The notes under the pieces were generated by a model that saw nothing but the letters and a program-made list of their open reading frames with translations, was not told where the DNA came from and ran no database searches. A DNA stretch of 39,063 bases from a virus (lineage: Duplodnaviria; Heunggongvirae; Uroviricota; Caudoviricetes): the IMG/VR virus record IMGVR_UViG_3300029305_011318. One strand, given 5' to 3'. Each line of letters starts with the position of its first letter. Positions within the stretch are counted from its first letter, which is position 1. Made by a program: the position numbers and the translations under genes. Positions 18,787-33,700 of the stretch are shown piece by piece.

Positions 18787-19152
18787 TTATGGTCGTGTAT
18801 ATTTTTGTTCATTAAATAACTCATAATAATTTGGTTGCATAGAATTAAACATTTTTTCCATAAACTCTTCTACTTCTTCCAATGTCCAATCGGAAAAAAA
18901 ATTTAAATTTATAGATTTGGCTTTTTCAAACATTGTAAGATGTACTTCATAATAATAAGAAATTGGTTCCCAAAAATTGTCTTGATTTGAAGGCGTAATA
19001 GGTTCATTTTCCCATTTGATAACATTAATAAAATATTTTTTACCATCATTATCTGTAAAAAATTTTTGAAAACGTGCTAAAACATTTGGTAAATCTAATA
19101 ATGCTGGAGAATGTTTTTTATATCCATGTTTAATTAAATATTCATCTGTCAT
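18787..19152 (-). CDS. Hypothetical protein
   Basis: 121-aa ORF with RBS AAAGGA in the operon orientation. Confidence 0.7.
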   Translation of the reverse strand: MTDEYLIKHGYKKHSPALLDLPNVLARFQKFFTDNDGKKYFINVIKWENEPITPSNQDNFWEPISYYYEVHLTMFEKAKSINLNFFSDWTLEEVEEFMEKMFNSMQPNYYELFNEQKYTRP

Positions 19153-19168
19153 ATTATATATCCTTTGT

Positions 19169-19714
19169 TTATGATGCTATTTGTTTTGCATTATTACAAT
19201 ACATGGTTGTTTTTGTAACTTTACTATATCCGGAACCATATGTGTTTTGAAATTTTTCAAAATTTTTGTTGGTCAAAAATACGTAGGGCATATTATTTAA
19301 TGGTGTTTGAAATTCATTATAGGATTTAATATGTAATGTAATATTTTTTCCACCATCTATATTTAATTCTGTATATGGTGTACCATTAGATGTATATCTT
19401 GTTTTCGTGTTTTTAATTTTTTCTTGCGGAATCACGATTCCGGCTAATAATTTATTATCATAAGGCATTTGATATACTTTTATTTTATTATATGCTAACA
19501 ATGATTCCATAATATATACTTCAAAATTATCATTCTCTAATTGTTTGCCTAAAATAATAACATCATTATATTCTGTTTCAATAACATTACCTAATAAATG
19601 TAATTTTTTGCGAACCAAACCACCATTTTGTGATGTAGTATAACTTACATCAGTTGGAGATACTAATCGTCCTACAATAATTCCGTATCCATCTGAAAAT
19701 AAACTTGCTTTCAT
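19169..19714 (-). CDS. Hypothetical protein (possible OB-fold/SSB-like N-terminus)
   Basis: RBS AGAAAGGA; IIVGRLVSPTDVSYT loosely resembles SSB beta-1. Confidence 0.6.
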   Translation of the reverse strand: MKASLFSDGYGIIVGRLVSPTDVSYTTSQNGGLVRKKLHLLGNVIETEYNDVIILGKQLENDNFEVYIMESLLAYNKIKVYQMPYDNKLLAGIVIPQEKIKNTKTRYTSNGTPYTELNIDGGKNITLHIKSYNEFQTPLNNMPYVFLTNKNFEKFQNTYGSGYSKVTKTTMYCNNAKQIAS

Positions 19715-19766
19715 TTATATATTATCCTTTCTAAAAATATAGAAGTAAAAATACAATCTTTATTTT

Positions 19767-19790
19767 TATATGGGTAAAGTTTTCTCAAAA
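19767..19790 (-). promoter_or_regulatory. Copy of recurrent 24-bp promoter-like motif
   Basis: Minus strand TTTTGAGAAAACTTTACCCATATA. Confidence 0.65.
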
Positions 19791-19841
19791 CATAGTTTAT
19801 TCCCTATGTAACGGAATATATATTTTTATTACTATTTTAAA

Positions 19842-19915
19842 ATACATCTAAGGGGAGTCGAACCCCTATTTTAAAGTTCGTAGCTTTAACGTTTATCCAT
19901 TAGCTTATAGATGTA
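19842..19915 (-). tRNA. tRNA-Arg(ACG)
   Basis: Cloverleaf; acceptor TACATCT/AGATGTA; anticodon loop CT-ACG-AA. Confidence 0.85.
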
Positions 19916-19918
19916 TAA

Positions 19919-19991
19919 CTAGCGGTATAGGATTTGAACCTATATTGTCGGAGTCAAAGTCCGATGTCATAACCAATTAGACCAACTGCCA
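19919..19991 (-). tRNA. tRNA-Gln(TTG)
   Basis: TCGGA-CT TTG AC-TCCGA; T-arm ATAGG-TTCAAAT-CCTAT. Confidence 0.88.
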
Positions 19992-19998
19992 ATATAAA

Positions 19999-20087
19999 CG
20001 CCGTACCTGGGATTCGAACCCAGAAACCAAATGAATGATTACCGGTTTAGCAAACCGGAGGGGTGCCAATTACCTTTATAATACGGC
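19999..20087 (-). tRNA. tRNA-Ser(GCT)
   Basis: CCGGT-TT GCT AA-ACCGG; long variable arm. Confidence 0.8.
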
Positions 20088-20092
20088 ATGAG

Positions 20093-20165
20093 AGACTCCG
20101 GTGGGATTTGAACCCACGAAAAACAGTTTTGCAGACTGTTGCCTTAACCATTGGGCTACGAAGTC
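20093..20165 (-). tRNA. tRNA-Cys(GCA)
   Basis: ACAGT-CT GCA AA-ACTGT; discriminator U. Confidence 0.9.
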
Positions 20166-20169
20166 CTAA

Positions 20170-20241
20170 TATCCCCAGAACGATTTGAACGTTCAAATGC
20201 GGGGTAGAAACCCGGTGTTTTATCCATTAGACTATGGGGAC
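20170..20241 (-). tRNA. tRNA-Arg(TCT)
   Basis: Acceptor GTCCCCA/TGGGGAT; anticodon loop TT-TCT-AC. Confidence 0.85.
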
Positions 20242-20247
20242 ATAAAA

Positions 20248-20318
20248 CAGAAAATGTAGGAGTCGAACCCACGCTTTTGGTTTTGGAGACCAACGTGCTA
20301 CCATTACACCAATCATCT
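20248..20318 (-). tRNA. tRNA-Trp(CCA)
   Basis: TTGGT-CT CCA AA-ACCAA. Confidence 0.85.
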
Positions 20319-20480
20319 ATGTGCAATTCCTTAATTAAATTAAAATATGTCTAGCGAAGTAAAGGTCCGTTTCGTAAATCAGCATTGTACACTACTGACT
20401 CCATATTTTTTCATTAAGACATTGTTATTCTTTGTGAGGATTCTGCCACTCTCACATCAGTTAGGAGCGACCTAACAATA

Positions 20481-20569
20481 CGCTATCTTAGGGATTTGAA
20501 CCCCAACTGCGATTCAAGCCGCAGACTACGGTTTTCAAGACCGATGCAATACCATTCTGCCAAGATAGC
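20481..20569 (-). tRNA. tRNA-Ser(TGA)
   Basis: Loop CT-TGA-AA; long variable arm; discriminator G. Confidence 0.88.
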
Positions 20570-20575
20570 TTATAG

Positions 20576-20647
20576 TCCGAATGATAGGATTTGAACCTAT
20601 GACTCTCGGTATATCAGACCGATGCTCTACCACTGAACTACATTCGG
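20576..20647 (-). tRNA. tRNA-Ile(GAT)
   Basis: TCGGT-CT GAT AT-ACCGA; acceptor CCGAATG/CATTCGG. Confidence 0.9.
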
Positions 20648-20652
20648 ATAAT

Positions 20653-20695
20653 AAAAAAAGAGATAATTTATCAAACTTATGATAAATTATCTCTT
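20653..20695 (-). terminator. Terminator/attenuator hairpin directly upstream of tRNA cluster A
   Basis: Perfect 16-bp stem AAGAGATAATTTATCA/TGATAAATTATCTCTT followed by a U-run. Confidence 0.85.
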
Positions 20696-20763
20696 ATAAA
20701 AGAAAGAAAAGCTGAAAAAATGTAAAGTTGGAGATAGTTACATAATTATTTAAAGCATTGTAA

Positions 20764-20871
20764 TTAATCATAAGAAAAATATTTAATTGCAGAACAAATA
20801 GAACTACATGACTGTTGCCATCTAATTTGCGAACAACTTTGTGCAATTCGAATTCGTTTGAAATTAAACAT
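20764..20871 (-). CDS. Leader micro-ORF A (35 aa) MFNFKRIRIAQSCSQIRWQQSCSSICSAIKYFSYD
   Basis: RBS AAGGAG 8 nt before the ATG. It contains codons read by all 8 tRNAs of the downstream cluster. Confidence 0.75.
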   Translation of the reverse strand: MFNFKRIRIAQSCSQIRWQQSCSSICSAIKYFSYD

Positions 20872-20987
20872 ATCGCTTTCTCCTTATAATTTTTGTTAAA
20901 TGCCTGGGCATAATAACTATGCCCAAACATCTGACAAACAACGCAACGTATTTCCCAAAAGAGTTATAGCACATAACTCTCTATCTT

Positions 20988-21011
20988 TATATGTATAAAA
21001 TTTTGTCAAAA
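20988..21011 (-). promoter_or_regulatory. Copy of recurrent 24-bp promoter-like motif (upstream of leader A and tRNA cluster A)
   Basis: Minus strand TTTTGACAAAATTTTATACATATA. Confidence 0.7.
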
Positions 21012-21259
21012 CTTTTCAAAAAAATAACAAAATTTAAAAAAAATAATAAATTTTATTTATCAATTTCGTATTCTTCATTATTTAAATCAATATTGTGGTT
21101 ATTAATAGAAAAAATTATTTGTTTTTTATTTTTATTAGTTAAAATTTTATCCTCTTATATATTGATTATTTTCCTATATTTTGTAAATCAAAACTTTCAC
21201 AAATAATATCTGTTGCCATATCTTCATCTACAGTATGTAATCCAGGATAATATTGACCT

Positions 21260-21748
21260 TTAATCTAATGAAATATCTTCCATTTCTTGATTTAATTCAA
21301 TTTCAGCTTCTTTTTCATAACACCAAGCTCTCATTAATTGTAATCCTTTTTTGCATAATGCAATTTCATCTGATGTAATATTATGATAATTAGCAGTATC
21401 CGGATACCGAACATTATAATATAAACTTTCTATCTTTTTAACATGGGTGCGTAAATTTTCTGAGGCTTGAATATCAAAACGTCGTTGTAATTCAGAAAAC
21501 ATAGCATGAATATTATGCCCAAATGTTTTATATTGTTTTTGATTAAATGAATTTGTCGTTTTATATGTTAATTTATTAATATCTTGTGGTTCAATATTAT
21601 GCGCCTTACATAAAATATGTTTTGCATATTTTTCAATGGCTTGTTGTGTAATATAACCAATGGCATTAGAGTCATTAAATTTAAGCAATTCAATAACGGT
21701 TTTATAATCATTTTCTGCAGCATGAAGCCAATTTAATTGCGTTTCCAT
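21260..21748 (-). CDS. HEPN-domain protein
   Basis: WLHAAENDY...GYITQQAIEKYAK...GHNI...YYNVRYP, typical of MNT-associated HEPN proteins. Confidence 0.82.
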   Translation of the reverse strand: METQLNWLHAAENDYKTVIELLKFNDSNAIGYITQQAIEKYAKHILCKAHNIEPQDINKLTYKTTNSFNQKQYKTFGHNIHAMFSELQRRFDIQASENLRTHVKKIESLYYNVRYPDTANYHNITSDEIALCKKGLQLMRAWCYEKEAEIELNQEMEDISLD

Positions 21749-21978
21749 AATAATACTACCTCTTCTTCATCATCTTTAAAAGAAAAAGGAGCAAAATGGA
21801 GTGTTTCTGGGTCGTTAAAAATTTGTAAATTTATAATTTGATTCATAATATCCATATGGTCATTGGGAGTATTATTTGTAACATAATAAAACGTATCGGA
21901 ACTTACCGATTCATATACCTCTAATAAATATGTAATATTATTAAATAAATCTATTTTTTTTTGCATAATAATCTCCAT
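21733..21978 (-). CDS. Small acidic hypothetical protein overlapping the HEPN start (possible partner)
   Basis: 16-nt overlap with the HEPN gene; upstream promoter motif; no GSxARG MNT motif. Confidence 0.6.
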   Translation of the reverse strand: MEIIMQKKIDLFNNITYLLEVYESVSSDTFYYVTNNTPNDHMDIMNQIINLQIFNDPETLHFAPFSFKDDEEEVVLLWKRN

Positions 21979-21997
21979 TTTTATTTCTTTATATTGT

Positions 21998-22021
21998 TAT
22001 ATGTATAAATTTATCTCAAAG
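21998..22021 (-). promoter_or_regulatory. Copy of recurrent 24-bp promoter-like motif
   Basis: Minus strand CTTTGAGATAAATTTATACATATA. Confidence 0.62.
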
Positions 22022-22227
22022 ATACTTGTTTTATTATTCTAAATCAATTATATATTTCATAAACATAAAAAACAAATTATTGAATAAATAAGGGATATAG
22101 AATATATCTATACCCCCAGGTAGCGTCCGAAGAACCGAGTCTGCAGCCTCTACATCTTTTACAAAATTTCCAGCCAAGGTCATGACTCCTTTACCAAAAA
22201 AACGTAAACATGATGAACTACCACACA

Positions 22228-22300
22228 TGGAACATATGAGATTTGAACTCATGACCCCCTACTTGCAAGGCAGGTGCTCTCCCAACTGAGCTAATGCCCC
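22228..22300 (-). tRNA. tRNA-Ala(TGC)
   Basis: GGGGCAT acceptor with G3:U70; CCTGC-CT TGC AA-GTAGG. Confidence 0.92.
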
Positions 22301-22440
22301 AAATTGACTGGCTACCTCTCAAAACCAGTCGGACTTGGACTTCTCACCCGTAGGCTTCACTCTTGCCTTATCGGTTCACATACATCCAATATAACCACAA
22401 TTATTTATAAGTGAATCGTCAAGAGGTTTTTATTATAAAA

Positions 22441-22676
22441 AACAAATAGTAAGTGATTTCCGTTATTGCAAACGCAAGGCACAGTATAGCACCTTATGAA
22501 CAGTCGGTTCTTCGTATTTCAACGAATCCTATTTCACATGCCGGTTTCATCCAGATTTCTTGGCTCTTTTCCGGTCTTATCCTCTTGTTAATAGAGTCCC
22601 CACTTTTCCTTACAGTCTCCTTTTATTTTCGTTTCAGTAAGTGCTACTTGTAGTCAGATAAACCCTTTTGCAACTA
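22441..22676 (-). ncRNA. Candidate structured non-coding RNA, family unknown
   Basis: GC-enriched, with no supported ORF. Nested pairings CAAATAGT/ACTATTTG, TGCAAA/TTTGCA and GTAGCAC/GTGCTAT; internal hairpin TTCGT-TGAAAT-ACGAA. Confidence 0.5.
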
Positions 22677-22685
22677 TTTGTATTT

Positions 22686-23969
22686 TTATTCTTTTAATAA
22701 TTCTTTATATTTTTTAATTTTATGATTTTCATAAGTGTTTTTATAATCCGTTAAATATTGAATTAGGTCTTGTCCTATTAAACGTTTTTGTTGTAATTCT
22801 CGTAAAAATGATTTTTTTTCTTCATACATAGTAAGTAAAAATTCTTTACGATTCAACGTTAACCCTCTACATTGATTAAAGATATTTTGAACTTCTTCTT
22901 TGGTTGGTAATTTATCAATATTAATCAATGAAAAGTTTTTCACATGACTTAAACATTCAAATTCGGTATTATATAAACCATTTACTGTAGTTTCAACTAA
23001 ATTTTCTGGATATTCGCCCTCTTTAGTTTTTGAACTTCCATTATCAAAAATTGGTGCTGGGCTTATAAATTTTAATGTTTCGGAATTTCGTAAAAATCCA
23101 ATATTTCCTTGATGTCTATCTCTATTTGAAATTAAAAAATCCACAATTGTTTGTATATCTAAATAGTTATGCGTTTCTTGTTTGCTTAATCCATAATGAG
23201 ATGCTAATTCAACAATTTTATCCCAGATGTTATCAAGTTGTGTCATGTTATATTCTTCTAATAAATCATACGCAGATACAAATTCTATATTTTCATTAGT
23301 AAAACATTGACATATACAACCTATGATATTATTTGTTTTGTCATATACAAAATCATAATTACAGAAATTATTATATCCTTGTTTACGATAAATTAAAGAC
23401 GCAATAATTTCACGAGCAATTAAAATATCATATTGCATATCAATTTTTTTACAAAGCATAATATCTTGGTCTTTTTTATACCAAAATTTTTCTAATTGTC
23501 CTCCTAATGTAGAATTATGACCTTTATAAATATGATTGTTATCTTTAACAGTATAAAATTCATCAAGCGATTTAAATTTATCTTGAATATCTTTCCATGT
23601 TAAATTCTCTTTTTCTGATTCAATCCAATAACAATCATTAAAAGAATATCCATTGTTTTCTAACAACCATTTACGAGGAGAATAATCTTTTTGAATATAA
23701 GAATCGTAATTGTAACGATTAATTGGAATTTCTCTATCTGATAACCATCCATCAAATAAAATACAGCCATCTTCATTAAGAATAATATAATTATTATCTT
23801 CTGATTTAGATTCTATAAATTCAATATCATACCCTGGTTTTATTAATCGTTTTAATGGCAATGGTAGGGAATCTAAATATTGTGTGTTAATAATACAGGA
23901 GGTAATATCTTTATGTAAAGTTTCAAAAACAGCAAGATTAATATCTTTATGTTTTAATGTATATAACAT
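22686..23969 (-). CDS. HipA-like (HipA_C) Ser/Thr kinase
   Basis: STLGGQLEKFW; AREIIAS; DFLISNRDRHQGNIGF; APIFDNGSS. Confidence 0.85.
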   Translation of the reverse strand: MLYTLKHKDINLAVFETLHKDITSCIINTQYLDSLPLPLKRLIKPGYDIEFIESKSEDNNYIILNEDGCILFDGWLSDREIPINRYNYDSYIQKDYSPRKWLLENNGYSFNDCYWIESEKENLTWKDIQDKFKSLDEFYTVKDNNHIYKGHNSTLGGQLEKFWYKKDQDIMLCKKIDMQYDILIAREIIASLIYRKQGYNNFCNYDFVYDKTNNIIGCICQCFTNENIEFVSAYDLLEEYNMTQLDNIWDKIVELASHYGLSKQETHNYLDIQTIVDFLISNRDRHQGNIGFLRNSETLKFISPAPIFDNGSSKTKEGEYPENLVETTVNGLYNTEFECLSHVKNFSLINIDKLPTKEEVQNIFNQCRGLTLNRKEFLLTMYEEKKSFLRELQQKRLIGQDLIQYLTDYKNTYENHKIKKYKELLKE

Positions 23970-23981
23970 AATATATTCCTC

Positions 23982-24116
23982 CTATTTGGATTGATTTACA
24001 CGAAATTTGTTTATAGCATATTGAATAATATACTGTTTATCTTTTTTTTCGTTTGATTGATGTTGTTTTAATAAACTTGTTAATTTTTCTTTATCAGAAT
24101 TTATTTTCATAATCAT
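23982..24116 (-). CDS. Small ORF (44 aa) MIMKINSDKEKLTSLLKQHQSNEKKDKQYIIQYAINKFRVNQSK immediately upstream of the HipA-like kinase
   Basis: RBS AAAAGGA. Its stop codon overlaps the AGGAGG RBS of the kinase gene. Confidence 0.55.
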   Translation of the reverse strand: MIMKINSDKEKLTSLLKQHQSNEKKDKQYIIQYAINKFRVNQSK

Positions 24117-24181
24117 GTCCTTTTGTAATATAAATTAATATGTATTATACCACAAACAACACTATAAAAATATATTTTGGA

Positions 24182-24222
24182 AAAATTCCCTCTATATTGA
24201 AATATAATATAGGGGGAATTAT
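24182..24222. terminator. Intrinsic terminator
   Basis: AATTCCCTCTATATT/AATATAGGGGGAATT hairpin. Confidence 0.75.
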
Positions 24223-24223
24223 T

Positions 24224-24334
24224 TTACTTGGATTTTGTAGTTTTCTTCAATTTTTCTTTTTCTTTGTCTAATTCGTTCTTCATTTTTTTATGAAGACTAC
24301 CAATTTTTCCAACTGGTTTACAAGAAAGACCCAT
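24224..24334 (-). CDS. Small basic protein (36 aa) MGLSCKPVGKIGSLHKKMKNELDKEKEKLKKTTKSK
   Basis: RBS AAGGAG; own promoter motif upstream and terminator downstream. Confidence 0.65.
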   Translation of the reverse strand: MGLSCKPVGKIGSLHKKMKNELDKEKEKLKKTTKSK

Positions 24335-24382
24335 AATATACCTTCTCCTTTGTAATTTATAATTAAATTGTATTTACATGTA

Positions 24383-24406
24383 TATATGTTTAAAATCTTC
24401 TCAAAA
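24383..24406 (-). promoter_or_regulatory. Copy of recurrent 24-bp promoter-like motif
   Basis: Minus strand TTTTGAGAAGATTTTAAACATATA. Confidence 0.68.
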
Positions 24407-24442
24407 TCTTTAAAAATTTACTAAAATTTTAAAAAATAAAAA

Positions 24443-24519
24443 TGCCTTGTGTTGGAGTCGAACCAACTTCTCTGGATTTTCAGTCCAGTGCATGAAATTA
24501 CCGAATCTGCTTACAAGGC
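24443..24519 (-). tRNA. tRNA-Phe(GAA)
   Basis: CTGGA-CT GAA AA-TCCAG; acceptor GCCTTGT/ACAAGGC. Confidence 0.88.
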
Positions 24520-24566
24520 TAGGTAAAGTCAATGATTTCTTTACCTTTGCTAAATCGTTGTTTCAT
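24519..24566 (-). CDS. Micro-ORF (15 aa) MKQRFSKGKEIIDFT abutting tRNA-Phe
   Basis: RBS AGAAAGGA; CGA-TTT at codons 4-5; the G of the TAG stop is tRNA nucleotide 1. Confidence 0.62.
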   Translation of the reverse strand: MKQRFSKGKEIIDFT

Positions 24567-24603
24567 ATACTATTATCCTTTCTATATTTTTTTGATTACA
24601 TTT

Positions 24604-24885
24604 CTAATATAATATACATTGATTTACTAATTTTTCTACTAATTCTCGGTCAATTGGTCTTACACAGTGTCTACAATGCATCAAATATTGCACCAAGAAA
24701 AGTGCTCGTTCTTCAATTTGAACTTTTTCATATTCTAAAAAATAAACATTGTATTTGTGTAATAGTTTAAAAATATCGCTTCTGACAGGACCAACCTCTG
24801 CATCTTTGTTACCAAGAAACATTTTTGTAATTTCTCGGTTAAATTCCATCCTTTTATTCAGATTGTTCATTATATAAATCCCCAT
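24604..24885 (-). CDS. Hypothetical protein within the tRNA array
   Basis: 93-aa ORF filling the spacer between tRNA-Leu(TAG) and the Phe micro-ORF. Confidence 0.6.
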   Translation of the reverse strand: MGIYIMNNLNKRMEFNREITKMFLGNKDAEVGPVRSDIFKLLHKYNVYFLEYEKVQIEERALFLVQYLMHCRHCVRPIDRELVEKLVNQCILY

Positions 24886-24941
24886 ACCAAATCATTTGTG
24901 CATATTTGTTTTCTTTTCTATATATAAGTTTTTATATCAAA

Positions 24942-25023
24942 TACGGGTAATGGGAGTCGAACCCATAAGTAATTAAACCACTATATCCTAAGTATAGCCT
25001 CTGTTCCATTCGAGTACACCCGC
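24942..25023 (-). tRNA. tRNA-Leu(TAG)
   Basis: CTATA-CT TAG GA-TATAG; long variable arm; A73. Confidence 0.87.
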
Positions 25024-25029
25024 TTAAAG

Positions 25030-25093
25030 TACCCGAAGTTGGATTTAAACTAATAATATTATGATTTTAAATCATACATGTATTATTCGGGTA
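25030..25093 (-). pseudogene. Degenerate tRNA-like element lacking a D-arm (TAA anticodon-like loop)
   Basis: TACCCGAA/TTCGGGTA closing stem; TATGA-TTTAAAA-TCATA hairpin; degraded T-loop TTTAAAT. Confidence 0.5.
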
Positions 25094-25096
25094 TAG

Positions 25097-25179
25097 TACA
25101 CCCGATGAGATTCGAACTCACATGAGCAAGCTCCTTAGATTTTAAGTCTAATGCGTATACCAAGTTCCGCCACGGGTGC
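25097..25179 (-). tRNA. tRNA-Leu(TAA)
   Basis: TTAGA-CT TAA AA-TCTAA; Leu-type D-loop; long variable arm. Confidence 0.9.
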
Positions 25180-25185
25180 ATAATA

Positions 25186-25227
25186 TTATGTTTTGGTTAA
25201 TAAAGATAATAATTGGAGTCGCAACAT
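25186..25227 (-). CDS. Micro-ORF (13 aa) MLRLQLLSLLTKT upstream of the tRNA-Leu genes
   Basis: RBS AGAAAGGA; codons TTG CGA CTC CAA TTA TTA TCT TTA TTA; stop 6 nt before tRNA-Leu(TAA). Confidence 0.7.
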   Translation of the reverse strand: MLRLQLLSLLTKT

Positions 25228-25257
25228 ATTATGTTCCTTTCTATAATAAAAGTTGAG

Positions 25258-25328
25258 TTGCTATAACCAGGTTCGAACTGATTACACTATCCTTATGAGG
25301 GACAGCCGCTTCCACTAGCGTTATAGCA
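25258..25328 (-). tRNA. tRNA-Met/Ile2 (CAT)
   Basis: Loop CT-CAT-AA; acceptor TGCTATA/TATAGCA. Met versus Ile2 cannot be resolved by eye. Confidence 0.75.
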
Positions 25329-25337
25329 ATATGAATA

Positions 25338-25409
25338 AGCACATGAAGGGAGTTGAACCCTCGCTTCTTGCTTGGAAGGCAAGCGTCATAGCCGTTAGAC
25401 CACATATGC
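25338..25409 (-). tRNA. tRNA-Gly(TCC)
   Basis: CTTGC-CT TCC AA-GCAAG; U73. Confidence 0.9.
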
Positions 25410-25525
25410 ATATATTAGGCTAATAAGAAAATCAGTCTTTTCCACTCATAATATAGACTATTCGCTTCTTTTTTCTATGATTAAACTCTGTTGTTCTATT
25501 CATAAATTCTCTTTGATATTTTAAC

Positions 25526-25597
25526 TAGGAAGGGAGGGAATCGAACCCTCGACAACCCGCTTATAAGACGTGCTTTCTGCCACTGAATTACCTTCCC
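25526..25597 (-). tRNA. tRNA-Ile(TAT)
   Basis: Loop CT-TAT-AA; acceptor GGGAAGG/CCTTCCT; T-arm GAGGG-TTCGATT-CCCTC. Confidence 0.82.
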
Positions 25598-25638
25598 GTA
25601 TTTTTGTAAATATGGTTCGGTATTCGTATTCGTTTCAT
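25588..25638 (-). CDS. Micro-ORF (16 aa) MKRIRIPNHIYKNTGR running into tRNA-Ile(TAT)
   Basis: RBS AGAAAGG; codons AAA CGA ATA CGA ATA; the last 10 nt overlap the tRNA 5' end. Confidence 0.68.
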   Translation of the reverse strand: MKRIRIPNHIYKNTGR

Positions 25639-25671
25639 AAATATTATTACCTTTCTTATTTATAATAGAAA

Positions 25672-25745
25672 TAGCGGGAGTAGGATTCGAACCTACGTAT
25701 CCAAGGTTATGAGCCTTGTGAGCATCCTCTACTCGTCATCCCGCA
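25672..25745 (-). tRNA. tRNA-Met(CAT), initiator-like
   Basis: GG-CTCATAA-CC anticodon arm; mismatched 1:72 pair; only two G-C pairs at the stem base. Confidence 0.78.
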
Positions 25746-25750
25746 TATAG

Positions 25751-25823
25751 TGACTCCTGCCGGACTTGAACCGAGCATTACATCCTTGAAAGGGATGTGT
25801 CCTAACCTCTAGACCAAGGAGCC
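25751..25823 (-). tRNA. tRNA-Glu(TTC)
   Basis: CATCC-CT TTC AA-GGATG. Confidence 0.88.
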
Positions 25824-25969
25824 AAATAATAAATTGACTAAGGTTGGTTTTAACAGTTCCAACAACTTTGTACTTTTTATACTGCACCACGCAGTTTGTG
25901 TAGTCCCTCACAATTCTTATTATTCTAATAAGCAACTATCTTAAACATGTGCACATCCATTTTAGAAAG

Positions 25970-26043
25970 AGCCGATAGAGGGACTTGAACCCCCAACAAT
26001 CTGCTTACAAGGCAGTCGCTCTACCAATTGGAGCTATATCGGC
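25970..26043 (-). tRNA. tRNA-Thr(TGT)
   Basis: Loop CT-TGT-AA; acceptor GCCGATA/TATCGGC. Confidence 0.9.
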
Positions 26044-26075
26044 AAATAACTGATTCGTTACATTTTGGTTATTTA

Positions 26076-26789
26076 TTACCCCATTGCTCTACGACACACT
26101 CTTTTTTCAAGTAATGGCGTATCGATTTCAAAATAACCATTAATTATACGGTCATATTGAAACCATTGTGTTTCAGATGGAATAGGTTTAGAAATACCTT
26201 CTTCAAATGCTTCAATACATGCATATTGATAACATGTTTCATTTAAATCTGTTAAATTAAAATGTAATGCTTCAATGGCATTCAATTTATCGGTATAAAA
26301 TCCCCATACTCTACTTGCTCCATGATTATTAAATCCAGCAGGTCGTCTTTCGATTTCACCATTTTCATTTTGTTTTTCATATATAACTTCTTCTAATGTT
26401 TCGCACACATAAATGGTATAAATTTTGTGTGTATTTGTTTTTTGTGTGTTTAATCGAATAAAAGCAAGAATTTTATCCGATGGTAAATCGAATTCACATA
26501 TGTAATGAAAATTAATCGTATCTTTTAAAGATTTCCCATTTGTAGATAATATATCTTGATAATTCGTTGGGTTTTTTTTGTACGAAACTATATCTACAAT
26601 TGTACCTAATGTTAAATTGTCCATAGATTTTTCTTTATCTTCGATAATAACAGTGGAGGCTACAATTTGTCTTATATCATGCCATAAACCATGTACTTTA
26701 TATTGTGGATGATTTGTAGTAATTGTAATCTGTGGCATAAAATATTTTTGGATGTCTTTTTGAGATAACATATAAATTGCCTCCATCAA
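26076..26789 (-). CDS. Hypothetical protein within the tRNA array
   Basis: 237-aa ORF. A GGAGG RBS suggests the real start is the internal MLSQK. Confidence 0.75.
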   Translation of the reverse strand: MMEAIYMLSQKDIQKYFMPQITITTNHPQYKVHGLWHDIRQIVASTVIIEDKEKSMDNLTLGTIVDIVSYKKNPTNYQDILSTNGKSLKDTINFHYICEFDLPSDKILAFIRLNTQKTNTHKIYTIYVCETLEEVIYEKQNENGEIERRPAGFNNHGASRVWGFYTDKLNAIEALHFNLTDLNETCYQYACIEAFEEGISKPIPSETQWFQYDRIINGYFEIDTPLLEKRVCRRAMG

Positions 26790-26814
26790 AAATAATAAAA
26801 TCGTTTTGGATTAA

Positions 26815-26900
26815 GGGTGAAAGATGAGACTTGAACTCACAAGGGCATTTACCCGCCGGAACCACAATCCGGTGCGTTTACCAATTCCGCCACTAACACC
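26815..26900 (-). tRNA. tRNA-His(GTG) with a long variable arm
   Basis: CCGGA-TT GTG GT-TCCGG; G-1:C73; Leu-like D-loop; extra arm CGGG-TAAATG-CCC. Confidence 0.82.
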
Positions 26901-27065
26901 ATATGTAAGGGTGACACTAAGCATATGACTACAACCGAATCATCTACAGTCATAATCAATCTTCTCCGAGGTTTTACCCCTTACTATTTTATCAAGGCAC
27001 AACTTGATAAACCTTAGACATAAGTTTTTTGTATAGAAATCTTGTACTACTCTATACATGCTTCG

Positions 27066-27139
27066 TTGGAATAGTGGGATTCGAACCCACACATTCTCCC
27101 ATCCAACGGGAGTTGGCTACCAATTACCTCTATATTCCA
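27066..27139 (-). tRNA. tRNA-Pro(TGG)
   Basis: CTCCC-GT TGG AT-GGGAG; T-arm GTGGG-TTCGAAT-CCCAC. Confidence 0.82.
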
Positions 27140-27235
27140 TTAACATTATCAGTTAATACTTTTAATTCAGATGTCTTATATGGTAATCCATATTTTTTAC
27201 ACCATTTTCTATCATTACACCACATTCTCGCTATA

Positions 27236-27487
27236 TTATGCAGAAATGTATTCTGTTTCATAATCTTTCATATCTGCAGATACGATTTCTTTGTCTTTCA
27301 TTTCTGCAATAGTTGGTAAATTATAATGCTTACCATATTTACATAATTTGCAGCTACAATGAATTTTATTTTTTGAATATTGTCCATCATGTTCATACCA
27401 ATTATCTCTATAAATAGCATGACAAATGGCTTTTTTACGCATGATGTGTTTATTTCGTAAACGTCTTCGTTCTGCTCTATAATGCAT
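27236..27487 (-). CDS. Small basic Cys/His-containing hypothetical protein
   Basis: RBS AGGAGA; HCSCKLC motif. Confidence 0.72.
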   Translation of the reverse strand: MHYRAERRRLRNKHIMRKKAICHAIYRDNWYEHDGQYSKNKIHCSCKLCKYGKHYNLPTIAEMKDKEIVSADMKDYETEYISA

Positions 27488-27516
27488 AAGGTATCTCCTA
27501 TAATGGTGTTTTATAA

Positions 27517-27597
27517 TGCGTCTGACAGGATTCGAACCTGCGATGGATTGCTCCCACGGATTAAAAGTCCGGTGCCCTACCTCTAGGCGACAGACGC
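27517..27597 (-). tRNA. tRNA-Lys(TTT) with an enlarged variable region
   Basis: Loop CT-TTT-AA; acceptor GCGTCTG/CAGACGC; extra hairpin GGA-GCAA-TCC. Confidence 0.85.
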
Positions 27598-27639
27598 TTA
27601 TGGTTTTCGTACTTTTGATTTACGTTTTCGTTTCTTCAT
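27598..27639 (-). CDS. Micro-ORF (13 aa) MKKRKRKSKVRKP abutting tRNA-Lys(TTT)
   Basis: RBS AGAAAGGA; codons AAG AAA CGA AAA CGT AAA TCA AAA GTA CGA AAA; the TAA directly precedes tRNA nucleotide 1. Confidence 0.72.
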   Translation of the reverse strand: MKKRKRKSKVRKP

Positions 27640-27825
27640 AATAATATGTTTCCTTTCTATTTCTTAATTTTTAATTACTAGGCTCCCAATCTGCTACTCT
27701 ATATATAATGGTTCATTACAAATGTTTCTAGCTAATCATCTTGTAATATAATATATATTTCATTGGTTGATTTAAGGTGCAGTTTCGCCTCGGTTCTTAT
27801 GTTAAACTGAACTCCACCTAGTAAA

Positions 27826-27897
27826 TGCCTAATGAGGGATTCGAACCTACAACTTTTCGGTTAACAGCCGCTTGCTCTACCATTGAACTACACGCCC
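27826..27897 (-). pseudogene. Chimeric/defective tRNA-Asn(GTT)
   Basis: Normal D and anticodon arms, but 5' GGGCGTG does not pair with 3' ATTAGGC and T-stem GTAGG does not pair with CCCTC. Confidence 0.72.
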
Positions 27898-27937
27898 AAA
27901 AAAATACCACCTATTACATCATATAATAAGTGGTATC
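27898..27937 (-). terminator. Terminator/attenuator directly abutting tRNA cluster B
   Basis: 13-bp stem ATACCACTTATTA/TAATAGGTGGTAT plus U6, ending at tRNA-Asn nucleotide 1. Confidence 0.85.
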
Positions 27938-28001
27938 TTTTCATTAATCTAAGAAAGTGAGATATTTATCTGGGCAAACATATTGTTTGTTCCATTTATT
28001 A

Positions 28002-28127
28002 TTATACAATGAAATGGTCTATATCTTTATTTGATTGTTTGTTTTTATCCATAGGGAAATAAAAGCTTTTTTCAAGCCCACGTTCTAAATTCATAGTATT
28101 AATTGTATTTTTTACCATGTTTATCAT
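28002..28127 (-). CDS. Leader micro-ORF B (41 aa) MINMVKNTINTMNLERGLEKSFYFPMDKNKQSNKDIDHFIV
   Basis: RBS AGAAAGG; lies between the promoter motif and the attenuator hairpin. Confidence 0.68.
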   Translation of the reverse strand: MINMVKNTINTMNLERGLEKSFYFPMDKNKQSNKDIDHFIV

Positions 28128-28227
28128 AACTTTTCCCTTTCTGTTTGTTTCTTAATATTACTATACGGTAATTTTTATTTTTTGAAAGTATTTTTCAAAA
28201 ATTTTTTATTTTTTTCTTATCTATGTA

Positions 28228-28251
28228 TATATGTATAAAAATTTCTCAAAA
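28228..28251 (-). promoter_or_regulatory. Copy of recurrent 24-bp promoter-like motif (upstream of leader B and tRNA cluster B)
   Basis: Minus strand TTTTGAGAAATTTTTATACATATA. Confidence 0.7.
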
Positions 28252-28283
28252 ATCATCAAAAAATAGATAATTTTTAAAATTTT

Positions 28284-29003
28284 TTATTTTTTTTCATATT
28301 CTTCAATACAATCTGCAATACTTTCTAAGTCTTGCCGACTAAAAACATCTGTTAATAATGTATAAGTTGCATTATCGAAATATTTTAAATAATGTCCTTT
28401 CATAATATATCCAAGGGGTGCTGTTTTAGAAAATATATGTGCAAATCCATTTTCTTTTGGATTTTCAAAAACTGATAATTTTCGATAACTATATGGCTGT
28501 ACATCCATCGGAATGGTTTTATAAGAGGACATTAGTTTTATTAATGAAAATCGATTATCTAAATAGATAGATAATAAATCATTCATTTTATATAATGGGT
28601 TCATCAAAATTAAAGATAATCCGGTTGTATAAATTATATTAGATAATGAATTAGTTTCATGTGTTAAAAAATGATGATGGTAAAATAACGTATATGTAGT
28701 TGGTTGTATTTGTTGACCAAATACAATTGGAGAATATTCTTGAATACCAAAATCTAATATTTGATTATTTAAAGTAAGCCAAATATGGTCTTTTGTATTA
28801 TCTTTCCATAATTGTGGAATAGATATTTGTCCATAATGTAAAATTGGTTTATATCCATATTCACATAACAAAATATATAACGCAATATTCGTTAAAACAT
28901 TTGTATCTTCCGGAATATTCTCATAAGCATGAAATAACAAATTTTGTAATACTTTATCATGCGAAATATTTTTGTGCAAAATTTGATTTATTGTTAATGA
29001 CAT
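28284..29003 (-). CDS. Hypothetical protein
   Basis: 239-aa ORF with RBS GAGGA. Confidence 0.7.
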   Translation of the reverse strand: MSLTINQILHKNISHDKVLQNLLFHAYENIPEDTNVLTNIALYILLCEYGYKPILHYGQISIPQLWKDNTKDHIWLTLNNQILDFGIQEYSPIVFGQQIQPTTYTLFYHHHFLTHETNSLSNIIYTTGLSLILMNPLYKMNDLLSIYLDNRFSLIKLMSSYKTIPMDVQPYSYRKLSVFENPKENGFAHIFSKTAPLGYIMKGHYLKYFDNATYTLLTDVFSRQDLESIADCIEEYEKK

Positions 29004-29346: not shown

Positions 29347-29378
29347 AAAAAAAGATACGACTTAAATCGTATCTTTTT
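29347..29378. terminator. Intrinsic terminator
   Basis: AAAAGATACGA-CTTAAA-TCGTATCTTTT. Confidence 0.82.
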
Positions 29379-30570
29379 CATCATATTCTTCTATTTTATT
29401 TATTTCATAATCTAAAGTATTATTTTTATCTTTAATAGGGATTTGTAATTCTTTTGCTCTTTCCATAAAAGATTGATATTGTCTATCTGTCAAAAACAAA
29501 TCTCTTGTAATGGGTTTTGTAAAATGAAAATCTACATGTTTCATGGCTTCTTTTGCAGTTTCATAAATAGATTCTCCGGTTAATTGATATTTGGCATTTT
29601 TATCTCGCATATAAGCAATATCAAACGCATTATTATGGTCGTACAAAGGATGACAACCTAATATTTCCATTGTATTACAATTATAGAAAAATCCCCAATT
29701 CATACCATGCCTATCACGATTACTAATTAAATAATCAACTATCATCATTTTATACATAGAATCCGGGTCTATTTTAATGGCTTCTCGTAATGTATCTAAT
29801 CCTTGTTGGTTACAATACGAATAAAAATCAACACCCGGTAAAATAGCAATATCTTCTGTTGTCATACATTTACATTTTACAGTATCTAAGATTTCATTTG
29901 TTTGTACATCCATAGATGTGCTCATTTCATAATGAAGATGTTCAACATTACAACAATCTAAAATATTGCTGCACATAGCTTCAATTTTTGATTCCCAAGA
30001 ACCATTTGCACCTAATTTATGTAAGTATAATCCATCTTCTTCTCTCTTCCATGCTTTTGCATAGGCTCCTTGTCCTGTTAATTCCGGTGTGGTTAAATTT
30101 CCATCTAAAGATAAACTACTGCCATGTAAAGATACTTGAATAACCACTTCACTTAATGAATTGGTTCGTAAATTAACATCTTCCCAAGTTTTAGTATCGC
30201 CTTCTAATTTTACCCAATAATTATCTTGTAAGGATACTGCCCGACATAATAATGCTATTTTGGCTTTATCATAATCAGATTGCAATTGTTCTAAATTAAA
30301 TAATGTGTAAATTTTCTTTGCATTATCACGAGTAATAGGTAATACCCGATGTGCTAAAAATGACTTTATTGAATCGTTATTAGCATTATTAACGATAGTG
30401 GCTTGCGTAACGTCATATTTAAAATTACCGGTTAATGGTTTATGTTCACGTAATCTATATTTTAATGTAAATGGAATTAATTGTTTATTTAATACATCAT
30501 ATTTACCTTCATCAAAATTAATTTGCATAACCGGTTCATTTTTCATCATTAATAATAAATCTCTTGCCAT
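29362..30570 (-). CDS. Second HipA-like (HipA_C) Ser/Thr kinase
   Basis: PELTGQGAYAKAW; DYLISNRDRHGMNWGF; HPLYDHNNAF; RBS AAGGAGAGG. Confidence 0.85.
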   Translation of the reverse strand: MARDLLLMMKNEPVMQINFDEGKYDVLNKQLIPFTLKYRLREHKPLTGNFKYDVTQATIVNNANNDSIKSFLAHRVLPITRDNAKKIYTLFNLEQLQSDYDKAKIALLCRAVSLQDNYWVKLEGDTKTWEDVNLRTNSLSEVVIQVSLHGSSLSLDGNLTTPELTGQGAYAKAWKREEDGLYLHKLGANGSWESKIEAMCSNILDCCNVEHLHYEMSTSMDVQTNEILDTVKCKCMTTEDIAILPGVDFYSYCNQQGLDTLREAIKIDPDSMYKMMIVDYLISNRDRHGMNWGFFYNCNTMEILGCHPLYDHNNAFDIAYMRDKNAKYQLTGESIYETAKEAMKHVDFHFTKPITRDLFLTDRQYQSFMERAKELQIPIKDKNNTLDYEINKIEEYDEKDTI

Positions 30571-30705: not shown

Positions 30706-33700
30706 TTACATACTTATACGTTCTGAAATTTCCGCCATCTTCGCTTTATTTAAGCGAGTATCTCCATGAACTCGTGAAAATGAAAGATAGCCATTCATTC
30801 TGTCAATCTTAGTTAGATTACTGCTTCCGCATTTTGGACATACATCCATTTCTAACTGTTGATGACCACAATCATCACAATATGCTAATGATAAATTAAC
30901 TCCTTCATAGAATCCCATTTTCATTGCACGACGTACTAATGTTTTAATAGAATCTATATTATAATCAATTGGGTATCGTACATATTGAATTTTTCCACCA
31001 TTGAATAAATTCCAAAATCTATTTTCTAAATTTTGTTTTTCAATTGGTGTGATTTTTTCTGTAACATGACAATGAAAACTGTTAGATACATATTCTCTAT
31101 CTGATACGTTTTCAATAATGCCGAATTCTTTTCTAAATTGTGTTACTTGTTTACCCGTTAAACTTTCGGCAGGAGTCCCATATATAGCATAAAGGATATT
31201 ATCTTCTTTTTTATATTCATCTAATTTTTTATTAATATATTCCATTACTTCTAATGCAAATTGCCCATCTTCTACTATGGATTTACCATTATATAATCTT
31301 TGTAATTCGTTCAAAGCAGTAATACCAAAAGAGGCTGTTGATGATTTTAATACAGGAGCAATTTTATCATTCAAATCTAAATGCCCACCATAAAAACCAC
31401 CTTCACAAAAACCTAATGGATTCATAGATGCTTTCATATGGGATAAATGTTCATAAGTTCGTTTATGAATATTCCGTATCATTTCTAAATAATAATCTAA
31501 TTCTTCATAAAAATCTTTTCCGGTTCGTCTGGATTTTGCTAAAATCATTGGAAGATGTAAAGACACAACTCCGCAATTAAATCTTCCAACAAATACCGGT
31601 TTGTCATTTTCATCTACTGGATACATTCCACCATATTCATACCAAGGAGAAAGGAAAGCTCTACAATTATGACTATATATACCGCTAACTTCAAAATGCT
31701 CGCTATCTGTTGTAACATCATAACTATACATTTGTCTTTCTATTGGTAAGATTTCAACAATTTCCGCATACGTATTATAATGAGATGAAACTGCATCTCT
31801 ATAAAATTGACGTTTTTTTTCACAAATAATATAATTGAGCAATTCTTCTGTTGCGAAAAATTCAACTCTATAGCGAATAGCATTTGGATTATTTTTTAAA
31901 TAATGATTGTGATAAATTTTAGCGGGCATACCCAAGGCTTGTACTAATGCCATTTGTTGTAACGACAATTCTTTATTTGTGGAACCAATTTGAACAACTG
32001 AACCACCATGCGAACTTGCATTTAAATAACCATCAGCATCAATCATTCCTGCTAAAAACGCCATTTTAGATTCATAATCCCAAGAAAAAACTTCGTTAGG
32101 AATATGCCGATTAATCTTATTAATTCCGCCAAATTTTACAGTAAAATAATTTATAGTAGATTGTAAGTTATTATTTTCATCAGCTATTGCAACTAAATCT
32201 TTATATCGACCTTTCTTACCTCGTTCTTGTAAAATTGTTTTTGTTTTTAAATCAAAATATTTTGAAAAAACATAGTGGAACTTATTCTCGATTTCATCTT
32301 CTCCTTGTGCGGCTATTGACACATAAATTCTGTTAGATTGATAACAACCATCACAAAGCATAAATCCTAATAACCAAGCCTTATCTTTATTAAAAACAAT
32401 TGTTTCTTCATTATATTGGTTTGAATTTATCATAATTTTATCTGATATTTGTAAATTTTTAGCGATTATTTGACCTTTTTCAATAACTTCAAAAGGATGG
32501 TCCTCGGTACACAATAGTCGACGACCATTTGATAAATGTACATCAATCCATTTATCAGATACATTTCGTATGATTTTTTGTGTATTTACAAAACCTTTTT
32601 CAGTATCATATATCATTACATCTAATAAATTCATATACATGTGTGGTTGACCTAAAATTTGATATTGTGGTTCAAAAAAGTCCGATAGTCGTTTCCACAT
32701 TCTTTCAAAAGATTCAACATATAATTGATTTTTATATTTATATGTGATAATTTCTTTGCCATCTACGCAACCCATTGGCGAAACTACTTTTCCATATTTT
32801 TTATACATTTCTGCCACATAACCATCACCAGTTAAACTTAACCAGTCAGGATACATGGTTTTTGCAGAACATTGTATTCCTACCTCAAAAACATCTTCTA
32901 AAACTTTTCCAGGTCCATGTAAATTTTCATCATACAGGAAAACCAATTTCGGAAATAAAACCGGTTTTTTATGACCTTTTTTACCTTGACCATTCATTCT
33001 AGTTCTTAAAATAGATTTGGAAATCTCTTTACCCCATTTGGAAGTATTTAATCCAAAAGTTGCGGTAATAAATGGATAATCTCCACGGCTAGAAGCTACG
33101 GTATTAAATTTGTATTCCCAGCCTTGAAATCCTTGGTCTATATCTTTACATACTTTTTTTGTTGCATATTCATTAGCATCTTGTGATAAATTAATACCAT
33201 ACGCATCATATTCAATATTATGTTGTTGCATAATATCTAAATATTCATTATAATATCTTTGATATGATTTTTCGGCATATGGCTCTAATATAAAATCTAC
33301 TTCCGGAAGTGTGAAACCTCCATACTGCTGACTCGCGGCCATTAATGTAATATCTCCAATCACATCAAATGCAGTATCAATTGTTTTAGGTTCATTATAC
33401 CAAACATTTCCCATTTCAAATCCACCAGTAAGAATAGACTGAATATCGCAGAGACAGCAATTCATGGTATCAAGTCTGGCACCTTTATCATGAGGATAGA
33501 TATAACCTTCTGCCGCCGCTTTCCGTTCATCTGCATTAAGAAAATATTCTTCATATTGTGCTGTCTCTAAAATATCTAATTTTTTGACTCTTTTAGTAGA
33601 GACTAATGATGAATCTGCATTGGAATTGGATTTATCTCCTAAAAATTGAATAGCATTACATTCGGCTGTTACTTTAGCATTCATTTGTGCTTCTCGTTTA

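Follow-up and report, generated by a model that had tools for sequence, protein, structure and literature searches.

Introduction

Transcription attenuators that act through a leader peptide can sense several amino acids. Among the multivalent attenuators of enterobacteria, thrL senses threonine and isoleucine and ilvL (ilvGMEDA) senses leucine, valine and isoleucine; trpL, hisL, leuL and pheL are related cases. In Escherichia coli, the pheST attenuator uses a leader peptide that senses the level of charged tRNA and controls phenylalanyl-tRNA synthetase. T-box riboswitches bind uncharged tRNA directly, without translation, and carry a conserved specifier loop and the T-box sequence. Here we describe Leader A, which lies at positions 20653 to 21011 on the minus strand of IMG/VR virus record IMGVR_UViG_3300029305_011318 (Caudoviricetes; 39,063 nucleotides, called the window below) and precedes a cluster of eight tRNA genes. 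The codon match between its short open reading frame (ORF) and these tRNAs, the conservation of this match and its covariation with the tRNA set make it very likely that translation of the ORF and the tRNA genes are linked by regulation. The terminator and a recurrent three-way complementarity further suggest that Leader A is probably a multivalent leader-peptide transcription attenuator of a phage eight-tRNA operon, in which stalling of the ribosome leads to read-through.

Like the enterobacterial attenuators, Leader A combines a short leader rich in the sensed codons with an intrinsic terminator and, as predicted here, with 1:2, 2:3 and 3:4 pairings that exclude one another and depend on the position of the ribosome. 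The energies are also similar. The E. coli trp attenuator has approximately -11 kcal/mol for 1:2 and 2:3 and approximately -20 kcal/mol for 3:4, and the corresponding values for Leader A are about -8 to -15 (1:2), -10 (2:3) and -18 (3:4) kcal/mol. Unlike the attenuators of amino acid operons, Leader A has tRNA genes rather than biosynthetic enzymes as its cargo, so that the product would directly relieve the shortage that is sensed. It would test six amino acids and eight isoacceptors at once, it is encoded by a phage, and its ribosome-binding site would itself be segment 1. The amino acid operon attenuators have no sequence or Rfam relationship to Leader A. With pheST, Leader A would share leader-peptide attenuation on a gene of the translation apparatus; unlike pheST, which is chromosomal and serves a synthetase and a single amino acid, it would control the tRNA genes themselves. 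The resemblance to T-box elements, which occur in Firmicutes upstream of translation-related genes, lies in the codon-like sensing of tRNA status and in the terminator/antiterminator switch; unlike them, Leader A has a Shine-Dalgarno site and an ORF, and no T-box match. A cmscan search of positions 19000 to 29000 (E up to 1) gave only tRNAs and chance matches to Plastid-ycf2, and no match to T-box or to the Rfam leader families (His_leader, Trp_leader, Thr_leader, Leu_leader and others). In its probable mechanism, leader-peptide attenuation, Leader A resembles known systems; it differs in its cargo (tRNA genes), its breadth (six amino acids, eight isoacceptors) and its owner (a phage).

Phage tRNA genes have traditionally been explained by codon compensation. 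To our knowledge, the control of their expression has hardly been described. They have also been viewed as replacements for tRNAs that host defences destroy (van den Berg et al. 2023, PMC10264068). If the present reading is correct, Leader A is a direct feedback regulator of tRNA supply, which reads the decoding speed of the very codons served by the tRNAs downstream. It would also be the first case that we could find in which classical attenuation acts on tRNA genes, with six amino acids sensed together; full-text searches of incomplete coverage gave no account of a leader peptide that governs tRNA genes, a negative that amounts to absence of evidence only. At what point a phage needs its tRNAs would become a question that a simple reporter can address, and the design would offer a natural, compact sensor of decoding capacity for chosen codons. 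The case concerns a Shine-Dalgarno-using gut or rumen phage lineage and comes with evidence from conservation and covariation.

The leader ORF spells the amino acids of the downstream tRNAs

The Leader A ORF (20764 to 20871, minus strand) consists of 35 codons and a stop codon and encodes the peptide MFNFKRIRIAQSCSQIRWQQSCSSICSAIKYFSYD. Its Shine-Dalgarno site, AAGGAG at 20885 to 20880, ends 8 nt before the ATG; site, spacer and start codon form what we call segment 1 (20862 to 20891, minus strand). The regulatory core, codons 6 to 29 (20785 to 20856, minus strand), reads CGA ATT CGA ATT GCA CAA AGT TGT TCG CAA ATT AGA TGG CAA CAG TCA TGT AGT TCT ATT TGT TCT GCA ATT. Arg, Ile, Gln, Ser, Cys or Trp occupies 22 of these 24 positions, and both exceptions are Ala (GCA). 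The same six amino acids make up 23.6% of the residues in the long ORFs of the window. When the 798 stop-free six-frame segments of the window were used as an empirical null, the Leader A ORF had the best 24-codon count (22), and the runner-up reached 18. Each of the eight anticodons of the cluster is matched by at least one ORF codon, and by ordinary wobble the eight tRNAs read all core codons but the two GCA codons (22/24). Arginine is written as both AGA and CGA, and serine as both AGT and TCN. The first-pass annotation, made from the sequence alone, had proposed that the peptide is built from the amino acids of the eight downstream tRNAs and that both isoacceptor classes of arginine and serine are sampled; the counts and codons bear out both points. 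The reading that it implied, that the ORF tests the supply of the tRNAs behind the terminator, is supported by the outlier rank, the Shine-Dalgarno site and promoter-like motif, the layout, and the homologous leaders that track their tRNA sets.

The cluster (19842 to 20647, minus strand) has the order Ile GAT, Ser TGA, a 160-nt spacer, Trp CCA, Arg TCT, Cys GCA, an atypical Ser GCT, Gln TTG and Arg ACG. ARAGORN confirmed seven of these eight genes, with the anticodons given here; the exception was Ser GCT. This gene, of 91 nt (19998 to 20088, minus strand), was called Gly(TCC) by ARAGORN and gave no match to the Rfam tRNA model. Its anticodon loop reads TTGCTAA, its variable arm is long and its D-arm is unusual, and the homologous clusters of relatives include a Ser(GCT) gene. 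The earlier assignment to Ser(GCT) is therefore probably right on the grounds of the anticodon loop and the relatives, for a gene that is nevertheless atypical.

Between the leader ORF and the cluster stands an intrinsic terminator (20653 to 20695, minus strand; segments 3 and 4) with a perfect 16-bp stem (20695-20680/20673-20658, -18.3 kcal/mol), a loop of 6 and a T7 tract at 20659 to 20653. The terminator lies where the first-pass annotation had put it. The tRNA-Ile gene starts at 20647, and the terminator ends 5 nt earlier. This gap leaves no room for a separate tRNA promoter, which had been named as an observation that would speak against attenuation, so the tRNAs can be made by read-through alone.

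The leader is preceded by a promoter-like recurrent motif, TTTTGACAAAATTTTATACATATAAAGATAG (20981 to 21011, minus strand). A 30-nt consensus, tTTTGAgAAaaTTTTAtACATATAaAaATAGa, precedes at least 11 minus-strand units, among them protein genes, Leader A (21011 to 20981) and a second leader, Leader B, and it stands upstream of most transcription units in the window. Its core, TTTTATACATATA, has 10 minus-strand copies at 0 to 1 mismatch; at up to 2 mismatches, 34 copies were observed versus a shuffle mean of 16. The core positions on the minus strand are 2344, 8477, 12346, 20988, 21998, 24383, 28228, 29318, 30639, 34013 and 37273. In several cases the motif follows the T-run of the terminator of the preceding gene. 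We consider it a candidate phage-specific promoter.

The spacer within the cluster, 160 nt free of tRNA genes between tRNA-Ser(TGA) and tRNA-Trp (20320 to 20480, minus strand), gave no Rfam match. The homologous cluster at locus L085 has a gap of 162 nt (8905 to 9066). Other contigs in the faecal sequencing runs described below differ at 20441 to 20446, within the spacer. It may represent a small RNA of a new kind or a decayed tRNA.

Two related leaders track their own tRNA sets

Relatives were found by anchoring on the HipA-like kinase inside the array; their HipA-like neighbour is about 62% identical. This approach revealed homologous leaders at L085 (8287 to 8436; identical to L086 across the leader unit) and at L172 (3700 to 3822), with peptides 44 to 50% identical to that of Leader A. 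The L085 unit has the same promoter motif, a AGAAAGGA Shine-Dalgarno site and an ORF beginning MNANTIRISISSCSSQIRCWQSSRNC, followed by a hairpin with U7. The tRNA genes behind it are Ser TGA, Leu CAA, Ile GAT, Ser GCT, Ser AGA, Gln TTG, Cys, Trp, Gln CTG, Cys and Arg TCT. In the L172 unit, an ORF beginning MQNVFSRRISQSCSRIRISCSSSICRETEYRC is followed by a GC-rich hairpin with a U-run and by the genes Ser GCT, Ser TGA, Cys, Arg ACG, Ile GAT and Arg TCT. The Shine-Dalgarno site and the ORF are kept at both loci, and a terminator hairpin with a U tract is present in all three lineages though the stem sequences are unrelated. The spacers after the terminator, approximately 17 nt (L085) and 40 nt (L172), hold no copy of the phage promoter motif.

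We scored each leader for the amino acids of its own cluster. All three reached 19/20 and were the top outlier of their locus; the runners-up among all open segments had 15, 17 and 14. Every tRNA of each of the three clusters has at least one codon in its leader. Tryptophan occurs in the leader only where the cluster has a tRNA-Trp: the L172 cluster is without a Trp or Gln tRNA, and the leader before it lacks Trp and contains just two Gln, the first at codon 2 and the second within the core. Over whole leaders, Gln counts are 4 (window), 2 (L085) and 2 (L172). Scored against the L172 tRNA set, the window leader falls to 14/20, owing to Trp and its four Gln. Three Cys are common to all three peptides. 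The N- and C-terminal parts are not conserved, and the composition of the core is. Aligned serine positions swap between the AGY and TCN boxes and remain serine, which argues for selection on decoding and not on the RNA sequence.

An exact look-up of the leader peptide gave no match on record. The neighbours of the leader ORF encode a HEPN protein, tRNAs and small ORFs of no assigned function, with no modification or export genes of the kind expected for a ribosomally synthesized and post-translationally modified or secreted precursor peptide, and homologues of the leader were found solely before tRNA clusters. A peptide conserved away from tRNA clusters had been named as a finding that would refute the proposal; in the loci retrieved, the peptide never occurs away from one.

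The other search routes did not add leaders. A blastn comparison of the region with a phage collection gave tRNA matches only. In IMG/VR, neither the two flanking proteins nor the helicase, alone or as an alignment, retrieved a close relative; the searches gave just generic UvrD proteins at about 26% identity. A homologue search with the downstream 181-aa protein found only the protein itself, and a comparison of the 237-aa protein that lies within the array with protein representatives was uninformative for the leader question. The helicase-anchored loci L001 to L004 have no tRNAs near the helicase, so synteny is not conserved there. Most of the HipA-anchored loci, namely L087-L089, L099-L103, L110-L171, L174 and L175, have no array or a different one, and none of these gave a Leader A homologue.

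Predicted alternative pairings of the leader RNA

The whole leader folds far better than shuffled sequences (z = -8.1). Its ORF folds into a single long interrupted hairpin, with z = -4.4 for the ORF part alone. An ORF fold-back hairpin is predicted for the two relatives as well (z = -2.1 and -3.4), with differing sequences, and in all three lineages it would sequester the ribosome-binding site or the start codon. In the fold of Leader A, AAUUAUAAGGAGA of the Shine-Dalgarno region pairs with UUUUCUUAUGAUU of the last codons, and AUGUUUAAUU pairs with AAUUAAAUAU. The central element is segment 2 (20762 to 20788, minus strand), comprising the 3' end of the ORF and the stop codon, which can pair either with segment 1 or with the 5' arm and loop of the terminator. 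In the fold of the free RNA, segment 1 (20862 to 20891) pairs with 20788 to 20766 (1:2). The partners in the predicted 2:3 pairing are CUUAUGAU.UAAUU (20776 to 20763), which takes in the stop codon, and AAUUU.AUCAUAAG, which consists of the terminator loop and the distal half of the 5' arm.

For each modelled ribosome position, we folded solely the RNA downstream of the ribosome, as far as the terminator loop. The 2:3 pairing formed in the nascent-RNA fold when the 5' half of the ORF was masked and was lost with the ribosome at codon 34 or beyond. Folding the full-length RNA with just the ribosome footprint masked was dropped, as spurious long-range pairs gave noise. The 2:3 duplex has an energy of -10.2 kcal/mol (shuffle p in the window 0.04 to 0.10). 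In all three lineages, a segment at codons 33 to 38 shows complementarity to two regions, the Shine-Dalgarno/start side and the 5' arm and loop of the terminator. At L085, the 8-mer CUAUCAGA serves as segment 1 and again as segment 3, each copy being complementary to UCUGAUAG. These folds suggest alternative pairings in the classical 1:2, 2:3 and 3:4 arrangement, in which the ribosome-binding site would act as segment 1.

The first-pass annotation had placed the antiterminator strand elsewhere, at 20731 to 20745 (minus strand). This segment can indeed pair with the terminator 5' arm and loop, at -8.0 kcal/mol, but it is the second-best partner: 20775 to 20762 gives -10.2 kcal/mol. A ribosome at the stop codon would not reach it, which also makes it less satisfying mechanistically. 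A competing TTACA/TGTAA hairpin that had been proposed right after the stop codon folds at 0.0 kcal/mol and is not stable. Two further hairpins had been located in the 5' untranslated region, at 20960-20980 and 20906-20924, and the minimum-free-energy fold recovered both, with 11 bp at 20982 to 20958 and 15 bp at 20932 to 20898 (minus strand). Both are lineage-specific; hairpin 1 is not found in the L085 and L172 leaders.

A second leader and short ORFs before single tRNA genes

Leader B (28127 to 28002) shares the promoter motif of Leader A; its Shine-Dalgarno site is sequestered, and its terminator adjoins tRNA-Asn. The segment after its stop codon can pair with the ORF or with the terminator arm.

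Other tRNA genes of the array are preceded by smaller units. Short ORFs that carry Shine-Dalgarno sites of the AGAAAGG type stop at single tRNA genes or extend into them, with no terminator between; they lie at 27639-27598, 25227-25186, 25637-25588 and 24566-24519 in the window (minus strand), at 1996-2050 in L085 and at 3320-3466 in L090. Before tRNA-Lys, MKKRKRKSKVRKP has Lys at 6/13 positions, and before tRNA-Leu, MLRLQLLSLLTKT has Leu at 6/13. An ORF with two ATA codons runs into tRNA-Ile(UAU), and a further micro-ORF abuts or overlaps the 5' end of tRNA-Phe in the window. In L085, an ORF beginning MDVDYYYYQ runs into tRNA-Tyr, and the L090 group has a conserved Lys-rich ORF of 48 aa before tRNA-Lys. 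Cognate residues were enriched in 12/12 Shine-Dalgarno-bearing short ORFs before tRNA heads, at 6 non-redundant loci. When the ORF-to-tRNA pairings were permuted, p was 5e-5, and 1e-4 without the Leader A family. With no terminator between micro-ORF and tRNA, a different coupling, perhaps by processing or folding, must apply to these units.

Working model and competing explanations

From the arrangement of the leader we infer translation of the ORF, a direction and a physiological trigger for the switch, and regulated read-through, which would operate as follows. Transcription would start at the phage promoter motif, around 20981. A ribosome would load at AAGGAG and translate the 35-codon ORF, in which codons 6 to 29 would act as a checklist for the eight tRNAs. 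If all tested aminoacyl-tRNAs were plentiful, the ribosome would reach codons 33 to 36 and cover segment 2 (20788 to 20762); the 16-bp terminator would then form, and transcription would halt at the U-tract, 5 nt before tRNA-Ile. If no ribosome loaded, segment 2 would pair with the Shine-Dalgarno/start region and the terminator would likewise form. If any tested tRNA were scarce, whether from a mismatch in codon usage, from shut-off of the host or because host anticodon nucleases cleave it, the ribosome would stall in the core, leaving segment 2 free to pair with the terminator 5' arm and loop. This 2:3 pairing would let RNA polymerase read through into the tRNA genes, RNase P would be expected to free the tRNAs from the transcript, and the restored tRNA supply would close a negative feedback loop.

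Several points weigh against the attenuator model. The 2:3 complementarity is only modestly above chance: shuffle p values are 0.10, 0.011 and 0.18 per lineage (Fisher combined, approximately 0.01). The antiterminator, at -10 kcal/mol, is weaker than the terminator, at -18 kcal/mol, and the loop that it closes is long, about 74 nt. Codons on the two arms of the ORF hairpin are partly dependent, which makes a naive binomial p too small; the empirical outlier rank in three loci is independent of the codon-independence assumption. The Trp and Gln covariation is one contrast among three independent lineages in the loci retrieved. The Ala TGC tRNA (22227 to 22301) that would serve the two core Ala codons sits outside the regulated cluster, and the sixth tRNA of the cluster is atypical. 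The 30-nt motif is without canonical sigma-70 spacing. Lastly, in four animal-faeces DNA runs the sequence was identical, at about 3x and on short contigs, and gave no population variants; searches of sequencing runs for this stretch brought up no RNA run.

Other explanations accept that the ORF is translated and differ in what follows. The ORF could sense the same tRNAs with an output other than attenuation, namely processing by RNase P, E or III, transcript stability, Rho access, or the leader acting as a small RNA. The micro-ORFs give this some substance: they abut or overlap the Lys, Leu, Ile-TAT and Phe tRNAs in the window and run into the Tyr gene in L085 without a terminator, so some coupling of translation to tRNA must work without one. 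The modest antiterminator statistics point the same way, and a perfect 16-bp AU-rich helix is a possible RNase III substrate. Such an output would not account for a canonical U7 tract in three lineages despite unrelated stems, or for segment 1/2/3 complementarity that recurs at the same codon positions, and we consider it unlikely for Leader A. A reversed, feed-forward logic, by which smooth translation would bring read-through and stalling termination, so that tRNAs are made only when translation is healthy, is very unlikely. In L085, a ribosome modelled at the stop codon does free positions 215 to 225, which are able to pair with the terminator arm. In the window and L172 models, however, the antiterminator forms only with a stall before codon 30 to 34 and is gone at the end of the ORF; moreover, it is hard to see what a phage would gain from positive feedback on tRNA supply, which also leaves unexplained why the checklist includes rare residues, among them Trp and Cys.

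Two further explanations dispense with sensing. The ORF could be an ordinary small phage protein gene, for example for a Cys/Ser-rich peptide, with its own terminator, the tRNAs arising by constitutive leak-through and the match being fortuitous or a result of shared compositional bias. Phage genomes often contain small ORFs, and the three Cys kept in all three peptides would suit such a product. Yet the ORF is an outlier at three separate loci, its core composition rather than its termini is conserved, its Trp and Gln content tracks the tRNA set, the peptide is never away from a tRNA cluster in the loci retrieved, and the family-wide permutation test is significant, which together make this highly improbable. 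We likewise give very little credence to an untranslated structured RNA, a phage small RNA or processing signal, with the open frame a by-product of a long hairpin. The strong folding of the leader (z = -8.1) and the single fold-back helix of the ORF are what such an RNA would look like. Against it, three lineages with differing helix sequences all retain the Shine-Dalgarno site, the ATG and the open frame, serine is kept across codon boxes, no Rfam family matches, and a hairpin alone does not dictate which amino acids the frame spells.

Returning to the attenuator model, Leader A might serve the phage as a sensor of tRNA depletion. One checklist ORF would detect the loss of any of eight isoacceptors, for example by host anticodon nucleases, tRNA-targeting toxins or phage-induced host shut-off, and switch on replacement tRNAs. 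With Leader B and the micro-ORFs, it would form a modular, translation-read control layer over a tRNA array that lies among HipA-like kinases. We put forward this role tentatively, as a possibility on which we remain somewhat doubtful.

Genomic setting of the array

The window is AT-rich (28.7% G+C), and nearly all genes lie on its minus strand. They include an NrdD-type reductase, a UvrD-type helicase and two HipA-like kinases. ARAGORN found 20 tRNA genes, to which the Rfam tRNA model added Asn-, Phe- and pseudo-tRNA-like matches. The window sequence is present at low depth in several animal-faeces metagenomes. The cluster of the window helicase was placed on a 128-kb contig, and homologues of the helicase and the kinases occur in gut and rumen metagenomes, on contigs of 100 to 670 kb; others lie on contigs that were binned with Lachnospiraceae and Oribacterium. 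The HipA-like neighbour of the leader array likewise has homologues in Lachnospiraceae and Oribacterium assemblies. These observations are consistent with a large uncultured phage as the source, presumably with a Shine-Dalgarno-using Firmicute as its host.

The HipA-like kinases (22686 to 23969 and 29362 to 30570 in the window) are kept beside or inside tRNA arrays across loci L085 to L175; 66 metagenome loci were retrieved, some on contigs of 100 to 670 kb. Related contigs carry SmpB (L002 and L173) and a T4 Rnl1-type RNA ligase (L004). The combination of HipA-like kinases, SmpB and Rnl1-type ligase suggests a toolkit for translation stress and tRNA repair.

In the NrdD-like anaerobic ribonucleotide reductase (30706 to 33969), the PHROG matches are interrupted by an endonuclease-like stretch at residues 510 to 701, suggestive of an intein or a homing-endonuclease insertion. 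Finally, a 521-nt contig from the faecal runs matches 22305 to 22399, adjoining tRNA-Ala, with 5 differences, which indicates that a related copy exists elsewhere in the faecal samples. This segment adjoins a non-coding RNA candidate that the first-pass annotation had flagged at 22441 to 22676.
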